64,000 bases of DNA from an uncultured bacterium (lineage in GTDB: Bacteria; Babelota; Babeliae; Babelales; Vermiphilaceae): assembly GCA_963695335.1 (NCBI GenBank), contig OY968764.1:160001-224000 (forward strand). The letters are read 5' to 3'. A program made the position numbers and the translations under genes. How positions within the stretch are numbered: the stretch's first letter is position 1; every line of letters starts with the position of its first letter. Below are positions 44,826 through 51,617 of this stretch, piece after piece. Below the pieces are notes generated by a model, which ran no database searches, was not told where the DNA came from, and saw only the letters and a program-made list of their open reading frames with translations.

Positions 44826-44902
44826 GCGCCCGTAGCTCAGTCGGATAGAGCAACGGATTTCTAATCCGTAGGTCGTAGGTTCGAATCCTACCGGGCGTGC
44901 CA
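44826..44902 (+). tRNA. tRNA-Arg(TCT)
   Basis: GCGCCCG/CGGGCGT acceptor stem, ACGGA-TT TCT AA-TCCGT anticodon arm, GGTTCGAATCC, encoded CCA. Confidence 0.98.
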
Positions 44903-45051
44903 GTCTCCGTTGCTACGCAACTTCGTCTGGCTGCGCCGCAAGAAATTAACTTGGCAACGACAAGAACTTTGATAGCAGAATAGGAGACTGTCCGACGTAG
45001 CGTGAGTCCGAAGAAGCCGTAGGCGAAAACGGATCGAAGGCGTAGACGGAC
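44899..45051. repeat. Cluster of YGWAGC/GCGDAG-family palindromes between the tRNA and the GIY-YIG gene
   Basis: GCCAGTCTCCGTTGCTACGCAACTTCGTCTGGC; GTCCGACGTAGC...GGCGTAGACGGAC with nested TCCGAAGAAGCCGTAGGCGAAAACGGA. Confidence 0.75.
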
Positions 45052-45099
45052 CAAGCCCGCAACCACCCAAGACCTCTTTATTATTTTTCTTATTAAATC

Positions 45100-45345
45100 A
45101 TGTTTTACTACGTCTACTTAATACAATCCATCGAACATCCTGACCTTCGATATGTTGGATATACCACAAACCTCAAAGAACGTTTATCTACTCATAATTC
45201 AGGCGGATCATTTCATACCAAAAAAAATCGTCCCTGGAAATTAATCATGTGTTCAGCATTTGAAAATATTGATTGTGCCAAACAATTTGAACAATATTTA
45301 AAATCACAATCTGGAAGAGCTTTCGCTAAAAAACGTTTTTGGTAA
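45100..45345 (+). CDS. Stand-alone GIY-YIG nuclease
   Basis: YYVYLIQS...YVGYTTNLKERL..HNSG, RPWKL, FEQYLKS.SGR. Confidence 0.93.
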   Translation: MFYYVYLIQSIEHPDLRYVGYTTNLKERLSTHNSGGSFHTKKNRPWKLIMCSAFENIDCAKQFEQYLKSQSGRAFAKKRFW

Positions 45346-45351
45346 TTTCAT

Positions 45352-45429
45352 TCAATCTTTACAGCAAAATATAACTCTTTTTTCTTTTTGCTCTTCTGTG
45401 CTTACACGTGCAATGATGATCGCTTTCAT
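45352..45429 (-). pseudogene. Serine recombinase N-terminal remnant
   Basis: Not in the ORF track. Translates MKAIIIARVSTEEQKEKRVIFCCKD* with AAAAGGA RBS; ARVST.EQ is the catalytic-Ser motif. Confidence 0.85.
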
Positions 45430-45518
45430 CAACAAGTTCCTTTTGCTTTTATGTTAACTGTTTTTTGTTGAGGATAGTGTAACAAAAGAAAAATAGATTG
45501 CTATCGTATAAAATAAAA

Positions 45519-45552
45519 AAGGGTCAGTTACAAATTATTGTAACTAACCCTT
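45519..45552 (-). terminator. Intrinsic terminator for the cargo genes
   Basis: AAGGGTCAGTTACAA / TTGTAACTAACCCTT with an A run on the left. Confidence 0.7.
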
Positions 45553-45570
45553 AAATCTTTATTACTTATT

Positions 45571-46191
45571 TTAAATAATATCTTTTGTTTGCAATTGATC
45601 TATTTCTTTTCTCATTTCCCCTGCTACTAAATTAATCTTTTTAGTATTTTCTGGGCGTAAGAATCGATGCATGTATCTATGATAGAATGCACGATTCATA
45701 CAACGATGTTCTTCTAATGCTTCTATTTCCTCAACCATTTGTTGGTCAATAGGCAATACACGCTTAAACAACCGATCACTATCAAGAAATCGATCAACAT
45801 CTATAATTTCTTTGATGCGGCTAGCACCATAATGTCGTGCTGCATTTAATCCATGATCTTTTTCTTTTTCAGAATATTTCTGATACGCTGCGCGTCTTTC
45901 ATCAGTTGGCACACCGGATTTAGGATCATAATCAGGATAAGTCTTGTGTAATATGTTATGGCTTTCCTGTGTTTCTTCAATTATTTCATTAAAAGGACGT
46001 TCTAAACGTTCTCTTGCTTTCTTAAAAGCAGCTTGTTGATTACCACAAATTAATGTTGAAACCATCCAGTGTCTGTTGCTTTTACATTTTTCAAATTCTT
46101 GTCGTGTATATTCATACTGATCAACAGGTGACATTGAATTAATACCCGTGACGAATGAAAAGGAAAGTAAGGCTATAAACTTTATATTCAT
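45571..46191 (-). CDS. Hypothetical secreted protein (paralog of next)
   Basis: INS-MS..DQYE.TR.EF.KC, PFNEIIEE, GLN.ARHY shared with 46212-46868. Confidence 0.8.
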   Translation of the reverse strand: MNIKFIALLSFSFVTGINSMSPVDQYEYTRQEFEKCKSNRHWMVSTLICGNQQAAFKKARERLERPFNEIIEETQESHNILHKTYPDYDPKSGVPTDERRAAYQKYSEKEKDHGLNAARHYGASRIKEIIDVDRFLDSDRLFKRVLPIDQQMVEEIEALEEHRCMNRAFYHRYMHRFLRPENTKKINLVAGEMRKEIDQLQTKDII

Positions 46192-46211
46192 AAAAAACCC
46201 TTATTTAAATA

Positions 46212-49364: not shown

Positions 49365-50342
49365 ACGTGAGTTCGATCTAAGAAAATTTTAAAAAAAAAT
49401 TCATTACGATATCCTTTTAAAAACAATCAAACTTAAAAAAGGGTATTGTAATGAATTTGACTACTATTTTCTACCATTGTGATGAATTTTGCAAATTTTT
49501 TGAAAAAGAGTTTCCAATCCGTGTTCTTTCTGATGGGAAAAATATTAGAAAAAGGAATGGATCTTTAAAGCTTAGTGAAACTATGACGATTGTCATTTAT
49601 TATCAGCAATCTGGCTATAAAACATTCAAGGATTATTACACAAAAAGTGATGAATTAAAATCAGCGTTCCCTGGTCTTACAAGCTATAATCGTTTTGTAG
49701 AATTACAACAAAAAATTACAATGCCTTTAGCTATTTTTACAAAATTATATGCGCTTGGAAAATGTGATGGCAATTCATACATTGACAGTTTTTCACTGTC
49801 TGTAAGTCATCAAAAAAGAATATCTTCTCATAAAACCTTTAAAGGATTAGCCGCTCGAGGAAAAACAAGTGTGGGTTGGTTTTACGGATTCAAAGTTCAT
49901 GTAATTATCAATGGTTGGGGAGAAATTATTGATTTTTGTATCACCTCAGGAAATGTTGTTGATAATAATACAAAAGTTATTGAAAAAATAACTGAAAAAA
50001 TTCATGGAAAAGTTTATGGAGATAAAGGCTATTTGCTTAATTCAGAACTGTTTCAAAAGCTTTACTCTAAAGGCATTCATATTGTTACAAAAATTCGAAA
50101 TAATATGAAAAATAAGCTTATGGATGTTAAAGATAAAATCATGTTAAAAAAACGTGGAATCATTGAGTCTGTTGGAGCAATTCTTAAGGAGGATCTTAAT
50201 ATTGAACATTCACGATATCGTAGTCCAAGATCATTGATTATAAATGTATTTGCAGCTTTAGCTTCTTACGGATTTCGAAAAAAAAAGCCATCAATATACA
50301 AAAAAAGCTTTTTTCTATTGACGGCTTAGATCGAACTCACGT
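49365..50342 (+). mobile_element. IS982-family insertion sequence
   Basis: Perfect IRs ACGTGAGTTCGATCTAAG / CTTAGATCGAACTCACGT; 6-bp duplication TAAATA (49359-49364, 50343-50348). Confidence 0.93.
49451..50329 (+). CDS. IS982-family transposase
   Basis: SYNRFVEL, IDSF, GWFYGFKVH, GDKGY, KKRGIIESV, IEHSRYRS. Confidence 0.95.
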   Translation: MNLTTIFYHCDEFCKFFEKEFPIRVLSDGKNIRKRNGSLKLSETMTIVIYYQQSGYKTFKDYYTKSDELKSAFPGLTSYNRFVELQQKITMPLAIFTKLYALGKCDGNSYIDSFSLSVSHQKRISSHKTFKGLAARGKTSVGWFYGFKVHVIINGWGEIIDFCITSGNVVDNNTKVIEKITEKIHGKVYGDKGYLLNSELFQKLYSKGIHIVTKIRNNMKNKLMDVKDKIMLKKRGIIESVGAILKEDLNIEHSRYRSPRSLIINVFAALASYGFRKKKPSIYKKSFFLLTA

Positions 50343-50364
50343 TAAATATTAAAACATTATGATA

Positions 50365-50402
50365 ATTCGCGACATTCGCGACATTCACGACACATTCGCG
50401 AC
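50365..50402 (+). repeat. Tandem ATTCRCGAC repeats (4 copies)
   Basis: Copies at 50365, 50374, 50383 and 50394. Confidence 0.8.
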
Positions 50403-50558
50403 ATTTTAGTAAATTTCCGGCTTGATCTTAAATGATGAATACACCGTCTGGATGAAGGTTAAACTTATGGTTATATCAACTTTATCGGTCCTGAACATAT
50501 CAGGTAAGTGGTGCCATACTACGCTCCTCCTCCCGGAGGACTTTTTTTTTACAAAAAA
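50400..50558. repeat. Direct repeat copy 1 (att-like end: orphan peptide tail, TGCCA, hairpin/terminator)
   Basis: Aligns essentially without gaps to 51459-51617. Confidence 0.9.
50406..50516 (-). pseudogene. Orphan recombinase-like C-terminal tail 1
   Basis: WHHLPDMFRTDKVDITISLTFIQTVYSSFKIKPEIY*; no in-frame ATG upstream of the Trp codon. Confidence 0.6.
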
Positions 50559-50614
50559 GCAAGGCTACGTATGGCGCGGCCAGTTCTTTTAAAGGTTTGA
50601 TATAAATTATAAAA

Positions 50615-50642
50615 AAGGCCTCAGCATTGCTGGGGCTTTTTT
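50615..50642. terminator. Stem-loop terminator
   Basis: AAAAGGCCTCAGC ATT GCTGGGGCTTTTTT. Confidence 0.65.
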
Positions 50643-50703
50643 AATTACCAAAATACGGTAAAGTATATTCTATACAAACCAATTCAATACTAAGGTAATC
50701 ATT

Positions 50704-51033
50704 ATGGAAACACATCCACTCGATCAAAATACAATAGAAGAAATTGCTCGACGACTTGTCAAAACTTATAATCCTCGTGAAATTTATTTATTAGAACCAG
50801 AAGGAAGAGATACTATTGATATTGGTATCTTGGTAATTGTAGATGATAGTATGGCTGGACTTCAACAACGATACGCTCTTATGGCAGAGGGACACAAAGC
50901 TCTTATTGGTGTTAAAATTGCCAAAAATATTTTAGTTTATACCAAAGAAGAATTTGATGAATATTCTCAAGATCCATCAACATTAAGCTACTCAATTAAA
51001 AAATATGGAAAACGAATTTATGCACGGGCATAA
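50704..51033 (+). CDS. MNT-like antitoxin with degenerate GS/DxD motif
   Basis: IEEIARRLVKTYNP.EIYL...ILVIVD...ILVYT.EEF...GKRIY; overlaps the HEPN gene. Confidence 0.75.
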   Translation: METHPLDQNTIEEIARRLVKTYNPREIYLLEPEGRDTIDIGILVIVDDSMAGLQQRYALMAEGHKALIGVKIAKNILVYTKEEFDEYSQDPSTLSYSIKKYGKRIYARA

Positions 51034-51400
51034 ACATTGGCTTTTAATAGCCCAAGAGGATTTAGCCTCTGCTAAGCTTCTTTCTAATGAGCCTTTTATG
51101 ACCGCTCTTTTTCATATTCAACAATGTGCAGAAAAAGCATTAAAGGCCTACATGGTATCCAAAAAAAATTCTTTTATCAGAACTCATGACTTAAATCGAT
51201 TAGTAGACATATGTATGGAAATAAATGCAGATTTTGAAACTATTCGTTTTTTTGCTGCTGTCCTCACTCCATATGAAACAGCTGGAAGATATCCAACTAC
51301 TGACTTTGTAAGATTAAGCATAAAAGAAATCGAAATACTAATTGCGCAATCTGAATTTGTATTCAACTTTGTTATGCAACGAATTAATAAAATAGCTTAA
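51020..51400 (+). CDS. HEPN domain protein
   Basis: WL..AQEDL.SA, FHIQQCAEKALKA, RTHDL, RYP. Confidence 0.92.
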   Translation: MHGHKHWLLIAQEDLASAKLLSNEPFMTALFHIQQCAEKALKAYMVSKKNSFIRTHDLNRLVDICMEINADFETIRFFAAVLTPYETAGRYPTTDFVRLSIKEIEILIAQSEFVFNFVMQRINKIA

Positions 51401-51458
51401 TAAAATTACTTAAACATTACCGCATTCTGCTCACTAAAAAGTATCGCGACAGAATCAT

Positions 51459-51617
51459 GACATTTTAGTAAATTTCTAGCTTAATTCTAAATGATGAATA
51501 CACCGTCTGGATCATTGTTAAGCTTATTGCCACACTGACTTTATCATTCCTGAATATATGAGGTAGGTGATGCCAGTCTATGCTCCTCCTGTCGGAGGAC
51601 TTTTTTTTTACAAAAAA
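51459..51617. repeat. Direct repeat copy 2 (att-like end)
   Basis: Homologous to 50400-50558. Confidence 0.9.
51465..51575 (-). pseudogene. Orphan recombinase-like C-terminal tail 2
   Basis: WHHLPHIFRNDKVSVAISLTMIQTVYSSFRIKLEIY*. Confidence 0.6.

Follow-up and report, generated by a model that had tools for sequence, protein, structure and literature searches.

Probable remains of serine recombinase islands, whose recombinase gene spans its own attachment site, at a tRNA-Arg gene of a Babelales genome

Here we describe a tRNA-Arg(TCT) gene and the DNA behind it in the genome of an uncultured bacterium of the Babelales (GenBank assembly GCA_963695335.1), a single contig of 1.37 Mb with 35.7% G+C. 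The window, that is, the whole stretch of DNA that was analysed, comprises 64,000 nucleotides (contig OY968764.1, positions 160,001 to 224,000); coordinates are window positions unless marked otherwise. Behind the tRNA lie a minus-strand stub of a large serine recombinase (LSR) gene, a set of cargo genes with two toxin-antitoxin (TA) pairs, and two direct repeats that each encode a 36-residue peptide, which we call the tail (Table 1). An earlier note, made from the letters of this DNA alone, had proposed a tRNA-anchored tandem island whose attachment sites split a serine recombinase gene. We hold it to be well supported, short of certain, that the segment 45352-51617 represents immobile remains, most likely of two successive islands at the CCA end of this tRNA, and that these islands belong to a Dependentiae-wide family in which the LSR gene spans its own attachment site (attP).

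The stub that points at the tRNA is real. The minus-strand translation of 45340-45429 reads MKAIIIARVSTEEQKEKRVIFCCKD followed by a stop codon, and at 15 of the first 16 residues it agrees with the start of the intact 501-amino-acid LSR-1 of the same genome (genome positions 495766-494264). The score is the same, 15 of 16, against the LSR found at this tRNA in G009, a relative of the same genus, and the stub is 87% identical over 63 nt to the 5' end of the G009 gene at the DNA level. The 16 homologous codons include the RVST motif. No LSR piece other than the stub is present in 44700-52000, where both the LSR body and the P' arm of the attachment site were searched for and are absent; the rest of the gene (approximately 1.45 kb) and the P' arm of attL, the junction beside the tRNA, have been deleted from the window. 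As only 16 LSR codons remain, the window holds a relic of an LSR element and not a working member.

The two direct repeats (50385-50558 and 51444-51617) are 82% identical over 174 nt, with a spacing of 1059 nt, and a search of the whole genome finds no third copy. They had been described as approximately 160 bp long. The 36-residue frames stand as described, but each repeat is longer: it consists of a 36-codon minus-strand frame, a core, and approximately 42 nt beyond the core, continuing past TGCCA into a terminator-like hairpin and T-run (50525-50540 and 51584-51599 in a plus-strand terminator scan). The minus-strand peptides of tail 1 and tail 2 are WHHLPDMFRTDKVDITISLTFIQTVYSSFKIKPEIY and WHHLPHIFRNDKVSVAISLTMIQTVYSSFRIKLEIY, each followed by a stop codon. 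Between them there are 6, 4 and 12 differences at the first, second and third codon positions, 9 of 36 residues are changed, and the ratio of nonsynonymous to synonymous change (dN/dS) is 0.18, so that the differences are indeed largely synonymous. The Trp codons of the tails are the CCA of GTGCCA (50511-50516) and of ATGCCA (51570-51575). Among the 35 tRNA and tmRNA genes of the genome, tRNA-Arg(TCT) alone ends in GTGCCA. A bare 6-mer match is trivial, and the weight lies in its context across related loci.

To the right of each core, on the B' side, lies a 42-nt hairpin segment that is common to both tails and approximately 86% identical. The flank that starts at 50517 is 92% identical over 50 nt (50534-50583) to the terminator and trailer flank of tRNA-Arg(TCG), and 50559-50620 resembles, by eye, the flank directly behind tRNA-Arg(TCT) in the relatives G008 and G003. 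CCA followed by TACTACGC and CCA followed by GTCT... are the two common flank types behind the tRNAs of this genome. Because the DNA right of each core is native tRNA flank, both repeats are attR junctions, composed of tail, core and flank, and not sites that end at TGCCA. The attachment sites in the window are these two attR-type junctions, with no P' arm by the tRNA; an element with a hairpin and a GIY-YIG nuclease gene is found there instead.

Two intact paralogous islands are present in the same genome, one at tRNA-Glu (genome positions 494318-499976) and one at tRNA-Gln (885627-894803). Their recombinases, LSR-1 and LSR-2, are 57% identical, and each has all three of the Pfam domains Resolvase, Recombinase and Zn_ribbon_recom above cut-offs. 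LSR-1 lies on the minus strand beside tRNA-Glu, its last 18 codons being tRNA antisense, and LSR-2 likewise reads antisense into the CCA end of tRNA-Gln. The alignment of the two holds up to one Trp whose codon is the CCA of the tRNA. Tails like those of the window, starting at TGG and on the same strand as the LSR, are located 5.7 kb (tRNA-Glu) and 9.2 kb (tRNA-Gln) to the right. The order of genes in the tRNA-Glu island matches that of unit 1 in the window, from the stub to tail 1: LSR, a cargo gene, a 393-amino-acid homolog of the 385-amino-acid gene, a small basic protein, a helix-turn-helix (HTH)/Gp49-like TA pair, and the tail.

Some further features of these islands deserve mention in their own right. 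In locus L003 (1171-3072 and 9534-10760) the integrated LSR-2 gene is stop-free for 633 codons, through tRNA-Gln and into the antisense of the neighbouring gene, and its island also contains tyrosine integrase-like, Toprim/DUF3987 primase-like and PD-(D/E)XK genes. A second unit, which has no recombinase, follows the attR of the tRNA-Glu island (L001 10216-12603, genome 500216-502603); it contains an ankyrin-repeat gene, a 74-amino-acid C-terminal fragment of the 385-amino-acid family, antitoxin-like genes and a tail (hidden Markov model (HMM) E-value 4e-8, at 502603). A decayed island without a recombinase is found at tRNA-Arg(TCG) (L002 4032-7715, genome 1066032-1069715); it consists of a frameshifted tail by the trailer motif, an HTH antitoxin-like gene, a 3' remnant of the 385-amino-acid gene and a macro-domain-like gene, and the CCA end of that tRNA carries a hairpin element.

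The same locus can be followed in relatives, as atpA and then tRNA-Arg(TCT) are kept in eight genomes of the genus. G001 provides the empty site for comparison: it has no island, and the gene of a 131-amino-acid chromosomal protein, which stands behind tail 2 in the window, begins approximately 170 nt behind the tRNA. This gene and the SpoU methylase gene lie 0.17-0.4 kb behind the tRNA in G001 and G005; in G005, which is the closest relative, the 131-amino-acid gene is preceded only by a short flank and the final codons of a tail. In G009 an intact LSR runs into tRNA-Arg(TCT) and ends in WHAR followed by a stop codon. G010 has the tRNA, an LSR (interrupted by approximately 1.4 kb), and further on the 385-amino-acid gene, a small gene, an MNT-like/HEPN pair and a tail, and then a hairpin element with a GIY-YIG gene. 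The recombinases reading into tRNA-Arg that the earlier note expected are those of G009 and G010. Smaller remnants occupy the locus in G006 and in G008, where a HigA fragment lies beside MNT. The tails of G010 and G009 also have 36 codons, with 5 and 8 residues different from tail 1, and among the four tRNA-Arg-type tails dN/dS is 0.08-0.31 and third-position changes dominate. ATGCCA, the core of tail 2, is the end of tRNA-Arg(TCT) in G009 and G003. From the G009 and G010 loci and their tails we conclude that the stub and tails of the window belong to the island lineage found at this tRNA in relatives.

How widespread is this arrangement? A scan of one genome per species gives 79 LSR loci, nearly all from Dependentiae/Babeliales or from unclassified metagenome-assembled genomes. 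The far-end sites in them were found with an HMM of the tail, since an exact k-mer search gave many chance matches. The 3' end of the LSR gene can be read within the fetched stretch in 67 of the 79 loci, and in 52 of these 67 it overlaps a tRNA in antisense (Glu, 16; Arg, 11; Asp, 10; Asn, 8; Gln, 7); across the family at least eight tRNA species are targeted. In 48 of these 52 loci the LSR strand has TGG where the tRNA encodes CCA, which extends the coincidence of Trp codon and CCA reported for the window to related loci. A tail on the same strand lies 3.9-11.2 kb upstream in 24 of the 52, a count that is limited by the 10-kb flank and by contig ends. The tail HMM matches at E < 0.001 44 times in the survey loci, 35 of them on the same strand and upstream. 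In 17 of the 21 junction pairs shown, the block of identity between attL and attR is TGG plus 2-7 nt and little else, TGG being the shared Trp codon; in the remaining four either TGG is lost from the far-end core or the tRNA gene does not encode its CCA. Around the core, several pairs have, by eye, a GTCAAC ... GTTGAC dyad. In a quick tree the LSRs group largely by target tRNA. Intact members, 4-11 kb in size, carry at the far end a conserved tail of 32-36 codons, on the same strand, that abuts CCA and native tRNA flank; its consensus is WxxLxDMFRNxE...SLxxIQTVF. As a separate observation, LSR homologs without a tRNA at the 3' end (L026, L040, L044, L045 and L061) share a different motif after the Trp, ...LRTFNWK..., which may represent a second tail family or another class of target.

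Genes in which the recombinase and the tail are unsplit also exist, as the earlier note had anticipated. L046 encodes a 522-amino-acid LSR that ends in the tail (tail HMM E-value 2.5e-8), and L064 and L077 are more distant examples. L073, a contig of 9230 nt without a tRNA, assembles as a circle through identical ends of 75 nt and contains an unsplit LSR of 531 amino acids, 50% identical to LSR-1, and a homolog of the 385-amino-acid gene. When 27 tails were made into a profile and compared with 1.84 billion proteins, 166 matches at E <= 0.001 resulted. Among the 150 matches listed, all are 35-244 amino acids long with the tail at the C-terminus, and local blastp links 27 of the 150 to LSR-1: in 26 LSR C-terminal sequence runs into the tail, and in one an LSR N-terminal stub is joined to it. 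A few library proteins have unrelated sequence before the tail (ankyrin repeats, a phosphodiesterase-like N-terminus), which fits read-through from a chromosomal neighbour. As no non-recombinase partner recurs consistently, the tails are not assigned to a non-recombinase protein, the outcome that the earlier note had named against itself. Two library proteins, P0032 and P0050, consist of an LSR N-terminal stub of 22-57 residues fused to the tail; both represent islands of other genomes from which nearly everything internal has been deleted, the end state that the window approaches.

The paralogous islands, the G009 and G010 loci, the 52 of 67 survey loci and the unsplit genes together bear out the central proposals of the earlier note: the tails are the severed 3' end of an LSR gene with attP inside it, and integration leaves the body of the gene by the tRNA and the tail at the far end, as seen in the LSR-1 and LSR-2 islands, in the relatives and in the survey. 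In the literature collection searched, no paper contains both "Dependentiae" and "serine recombinase", and a scan of IMG/VR with the LSR alignment returns one partial match.

Table 1. Features of the tRNA-Arg(TCT) locus (window positions; amino acids, aa; open reading frame, ORF)
Feature	Position	Strand	Remarks
tRNA-Arg(TCT)	44826..44902	+	Integration target (B arm); 3' end GTGCCA; ARAGORN; Rfam tRNA 75 bits
GC-rich hairpin "trailer" element, fused to CCA end	44903..45065	+	Separate element, outside the island
81-aa GIY-YIG nuclease gene of the hairpin element	45100..45345	+	Pfam PF01541, 9.7e-17
LSR stub ORF, 25 codons	45352..45429	-	Homology limited to codons 1-16 (45382-45429)
Two paralogous cargo genes, 206 and 218 aa	45571..46868	-	ORF list; internal repeats D2-D4 at 73-79%
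385-aa island core protein ("Rep-like")	46948..48105	-	Homologs in 59 of 79 LSR loci and in circular contig L073
111-aa basic protein, conserved partner overlapping the 385-aa gene	48071..48406	-	Same place in tRNA-Glu island (137 aa), G009, G010
Unit 1 toxin-antitoxin pair	48653..49335	-	HTH antitoxin 48653-48964; RelE/HigB-like toxin 48961-49335
IS982-family insertion sequence	49363..50344	+	20-nt perfect inverted repeats; DDE_Tnp_1_3 8.8e-56
Orphan tail 1 (P arm of attR1), 36 codons and stop	50406..50516	-	Core GTGCCA 50511-50516; tail HMM 5e-18
B' side of attR1, native tRNA flank	50517..50654	+	Hairpin terminator 50525-50540 and T-run, A-run, tRNA-trailer motif to ~50597
Unit 2 remnant: 109-aa protein (putative MNT-like antitoxin) and HEPN toxin 51005-51400	50704..51400	+	HEPN PF05168 8.6e-21
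Orphan tail 2 (P arm of attR2), 36 codons and stop	51465..51575	-	Core ATGCCAGTCT 51570-51579; tail HMM 1.4e-16
B' side of attR2: hairpin terminator and A-run	51576..51617	+	Then promoter and gene of 131-aa chromosomal protein, SpoU methylase gene

The remaining genes of the locus are listed in Table 1. The 206-, 218-, 385-, 111- and 109-amino-acid proteins have no family match in Pfam, PHROGs or NCBIfam. The two cargo proteins have N-termini that, judged by eye only, look like signal peptides. The 385-amino-acid protein is 82% identical to its G010 copy. It had been labelled "Rep", a label that no HMM family match backs; a single language-model look-up in the ESM Atlas places it at 0.98 to clusters in which 25-57% of members have PF05144 Phage_CRI, and we treat this as a lead only. 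The TA pair of unit 1 matches HTH_3 (4.4e-8) and RelE PF06296 (3.3e-8). In unit 2 the "MNT" label of the 109-amino-acid protein likewise lacks a family match; the 109-amino-acid protein and its HEPN partner are 71% and 57% identical to the pair before the tail in G010. The IS982-family element is a later insertion into unit 1, and it has recently been active, since its four copies in the genome are 100% identical. A second GC-rich element lies just 5' of tRNA-Arg(TCT) (44744-44803); it is 81% shared with the tRNA-Arg(TCG) locus (genome 1069796-1069870), and partial copies occur elsewhere in the genome, including 19280-19317.

Unit 1 had been taken to start at 44903, directly behind the tRNA. 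This start has to be moved: 44903-45345 is a separate element of hairpin and GIY-YIG gene, which in G010 lies on the chromosomal side of attR. The GC-rich hairpin has 11 further copies in the genome, 10 of which start at a distance of at most approximately 20 nt from a tRNA or tmRNA 3' end; the copy at 454743 has no ARAGORN-listed tRNA or tmRNA gene beside it. The window copy is 86% identical over 160 nt to the one behind tRNA-Arg(TCG). Two of the hairpin copies have a GIY-YIG gene (80-81 amino acids). The protein of the window is 93% identical to that of G010, where the gene sits beyond the tail (attR) of the island, and a 45%-identical paralog is found behind the attR of the tRNA-Gln island. 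Sequence comparison suggests that hairpin and GIY-YIG gene form one element that lodges at the CCA ends of tRNAs and is probably mobile. The islands next to the two tRNA-Arg genes with the hairpin on their CCA end have both lost the recombinase, and the two islands with an intact recombinase have no such element at the junction (two versus two, too few to test). Since native flank, and not the hairpin element, stands next to attR1, the integration of unit 1 probably preceded the landing of the hairpin and GIY-YIG gene on the tRNA.

We can now outline a possible history of the locus. The circular form of an island would carry the full-length LSR gene. Integration would exchange the tail for a few tRNA-antisense codons (WHAR and a stop codon at this tRNA in G009), and excision would restore it. 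Unit 1 would be an island that keeps the stub with its 16 LSR codons, the two cargo genes, the 385- and 111-amino-acid core genes, the HigBA-like pair and tail 1, whereas unit 2 would be the distal end (MNT-like/HEPN pair and tail 2) of another island of the same lineage. The TA pairs next to the tails may outlast the decay of the rest because they would resist deletion. The hairpin and GIY-YIG element would have landed on the tRNA CCA after unit 1, and the LSR body and attL arm would have been lost afterwards. With no attL and no LSR left, the array cannot move or excise. The earlier note had called it immobilised or dependent on a recombinase in trans; immobile it is, and, with the attL arm gone, a recombinase acting in trans would be unlikely to rescue it.

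The array looks like accretion and decay. Two successive integrations, as the earlier note proposed, are in our judgement the likelier origin of the two tails, by a modest preference. Since the canonical island has one TA pair by its tail, two tails and two pairs fit two islands. A distal unit of TA pair and tail recurs in L019 (a putative two-gene pair, named by eye), and arrays similar to that of the window are found in L074, behind the tRNA-Glu island (tail at 502603) and at tRNA-Arg(TCG). In L050 and L074 a 3' fragment of an LSR runs straight into a tail, a hybrid junction that is expected from whole islands stacking by a tRNA.

Several points weigh against this history. As the window has neither LSR body nor attL junction, the history rests on analogy with paralogs and relatives. 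A simple model of two integrations leaves the shared 42-nt B' hairpin (approximately 86% identical) unexplained. In the window the GIY-YIG element stands between tRNA and stub, but in G010 it lies beyond attR and in G006 beyond the LSR remnant; a round of excision and re-integration, the latter at a secondary site, might be an alternative route to such a position. We could not reconstruct a single order of events that fits both the duplicated B' hairpin and the position of the GIY-YIG element. No read evidence of excision was obtained for any member of the family. A run search with the tRNA-Glu island gives five metagenome runs with 6-8% of its words, none of them with the full genome; in four runs at 85% likeness one contig, in X3, joins L001 4318 to 9991, skipping 5672 nt, with 14 other letters between and a side of 30. 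This joint would fit an empty tRNA-Glu site in a relative, and it is too short and repeat-prone to count as evidence. Finally, because the single island of G010 has the small core gene, MNT-like/HEPN pair and tail contiguous, the array of the window could derive from one island.

That last possibility is the strongest of the alternatives, though we consider it improbable. The attR junction (tail, core and hairpin terminator) might have been duplicated locally, or a block of TA pair, tail and flank might have been inserted into an island like that of G010. Tail and 42-nt B' flank are repeated together, with similar identity in both parts (82% over all 174 nt), and the G010 order (385-amino-acid gene, small gene, MNT-like/HEPN, tail) differs from that of the window by the block 48659-50654. 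However, the differences between the tails fall mainly at third positions (6/4/12; dN/dS 0.18), unlike copies decaying in place, and tail 1 differs from the G010 tail at 5 of 36 residues but from tail 2 at 9, which makes the G010 tail the nearer one. The cores also differ, GTGCCA versus ATGCCA, the latter being the tRNA-Arg(TCT) end in G009 and G003. Moreover, one island would bring one TA pair and the window has two, and the unit of TA pair and tail recurs in L019, with a similar array in L074.

The earlier note likened the locus to an integron-like cassette array, in which small LSR-less units of TA pair and tail would have been captured singly by a recombinase acting in trans. Units of this kind, approximately 1 kb apart, do recur in the window, L019, L074 and behind the tRNA-Glu island. 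An integron has a resident tyrosine integrase, IntI, with attI and a promoter, and cassettes that end in attC hairpins. The window shares with it short gene units, in one orientation, behind a fixed site, but has no platform integrase, no attI or attC hairpins and no common promoter, and each of its units is a relic of an element with its own recombinase; in 44700-52000 there is no integrase ORF besides the stub, and the junctions are tail, CCA and tRNA flank. The defining features of an integron thus fail here. No circular mini-cassette was seen, the hybrid junctions of L050 and L074 fit stacking of whole islands, and the G008 remnant (HigA fragment beside MNT) shows deletion at work. In this genome the two intact LSRs occupy tRNA-Glu and tRNA-Gln, and the tree groups LSRs for the most part by target. 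We also count against this reading that, to our knowledge, LSRs do not recombine attP with attR or attL without extra factors. Altogether we regard capture of single cassettes as very unlikely. Still weaker is the idea that the repeats encode small RNAs, or small proteins of their own, with no link to recombination, which we dismiss: a terminator-like hairpin does follow each repeat on the plus strand, but the repeats belong to no Rfam family (the sole match is weak, terminator-only and below cut-off, AbsR25 at 50585-50642), fold no better than shuffles on either strand (z +1.1, +1.1, 0.0, +1.1) and have no start codon common to both tails, and the same peptide is the C-terminus of LSR genes elsewhere.

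What is the role of the tail? Its conservation reaches 25-30 codons (approximately 90 nt) from the core, up to the SLxxIQTVF motif, and the motif is kept at the protein level across loci whose DNA no longer aligns. Conservation over some 30 codons and mostly synonymous change argue for a role of the peptide beyond that of a DNA arm, as far as sequence comparison can indicate. An AlphaFold2 model of P0036, a natural fragment of 244 amino acids, has two helices in the tail (predicted local distance difference test, pLDDT, 61-85; approximately 85 in the motif helix), and a fold search with this model gives generic coiled-coil matches only, in residues 50-149. A point on the other side is that the tail of the unsplit L073 LSR, for which few aligned rows include the tail, is modelled at pLDDT 31-35. 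The alternative is that the tail is conserved solely as the arm of attP DNA bound by the recombinase and that the peptide has no role, as McMurdie et al. (2011; PMC3146451) assumed for the recombinase DsiB. The disorder predicted for the L073 tail would agree with this, as would the overlap of the first eight or so tail codons (LVDMFRN) with the GTCAAC ... GTTGAC dyad, seen by eye around the core. But the conserved stretch of approximately 90 nt exceeds the half-site of roughly 25 bp usual for LSRs (abstracts give sites of 40-50 bp), the changes are mostly synonymous with the motif kept in the protein where the DNA no longer aligns, and the motif helix of P0036 is modelled with a pLDDT of approximately 85. 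We find the DNA-arm explanation doubtful for these reasons.

It is tempting to speculate, and we give this little weight, that the tail acts as a built-in direction switch, that the tRNA end is contested ground where relic units of TA pair and tail serve as spare C-termini, and that the GIY-YIG element disarms islands. If so, the full-length enzyme made from the free circle would integrate, and the tail-less chromosomal form would be inactive or biased towards excision. A new island stacking beside an old one would give the old gene a tail again, and the GIY-YIG hairpin element would cut the integrase gene off from its site, as at both tRNA-Arg loci.

How large serine integrases control direction is under active study, and the enzymes serve as genome-engineering tools. 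The family supplies full-length and tail-less enzymes as natural pairs whose attP, attB, attL and attR sites can be read; the window itself adds little on direction control because its copy is dead. What the window does display is an order of decay: the recombinase gene goes first, TA pairs and orphan tails persist, and a second selfish element takes the same tRNA end. For annotation, orphan ORFs of 30-40 codons that end in ...SLxxIQTVF mark old island boundaries.

The closest known systems are other integrases whose gene overlaps the attachment site. In Dehalococcoides, tandem islands, some without an integration module, lie behind ssrA (McMurdie et al. 2011). DsiB, a serine recombinase of approximately 540 amino acids, is encoded next to attL on the reverse strand, and the 3' end of its gene always overlaps attL and the tRNA-like gene; the authors suggested that full function of dsiB might be confined to the circle or to a position downstream of a neighbour whose sequence supplies the 3' fragment. 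The family described here resembles these islands in the overlap of the recombinase gene with attL and target at its 3' end and in tandem arrays behind one target. The target of DsiB is the T-loop of the tmRNA, with a 20-bp repeat, whereas the present family uses the final 5-10 nt (the CCA end) of at least eight tRNA species. The 3' part of DsiB was judged divergent and probably non-functional, while the tail here is a conserved family under purifying selection. Compared with the islands described there, those of the present family measure 4-11 kb, their core is the 385-amino-acid protein, small basic protein and TA pair, with no DsiA partner, and the window copy is dead.

For streptococcal integrative and conjugative elements inserted in rumA, the target holds one repeat and the gene of the single serine integrase holds the second (Ambroset et al. 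2016; PMC4701971). As in the family here, integration exchanges 3' parts and alters the C-terminus of the integrase; the differences are a protein-coding target with an altered product, large conjugative elements, and no conserved tail family described. The myxophage Mx8, as quoted in the same paper, has attP within int, and the C-terminus is swapped for a short one, with the altered enzyme reportedly less active. It shares with the islands an attP inside the integrase gene and replacement of the C-terminus upon integration, but it is a phage, its enzyme is a tyrosine recombinase, and 112 residues are lost. A review (PMC8371274) calls gene-splitting integrases exclusive to archaea, by which tyrosine enzymes split into large parts are meant. 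These SSV-type "suicidal" integrases also have a recombination site in the integrase gene, which is split on integration; they are archaeal tyrosine recombinases left in two large parts, whereas here the last 32-36 codons are removed. The tycheposons of Prochlorococcus (bioRxiv 10.1101/2020.12.28.424599), 27 of 937 of which use a large serine recombinase, are likewise small, target tRNAs and carry replication genes, and degenerate elements and partial sites pile up by the tRNA. They differ in having mostly tyrosine integrases, and the passages of that report used here contain no integrase gene spanning attP.

Both marks of this kind of element are found in the family. An integrase ORF runs across attL into the target in LSR-1, in LSR-2, in G009 at this very tRNA and in the 52 of 67 survey loci, the LSR 3' end of the window being deleted. 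A displaced 3' fragment stands at attR in the two tails of the window (50516 and 51575), and the same fragment is contiguous with the recombinase in L046, L064, L077, L073 and 26 of the 150 library matches listed. With DsiB (2011), the rumA elements and Mx8 in print, the principle of an integrase gene spanning attP is already known; the Dependentiae elements are a new family within this known kind, of which the window holds a dead copy.

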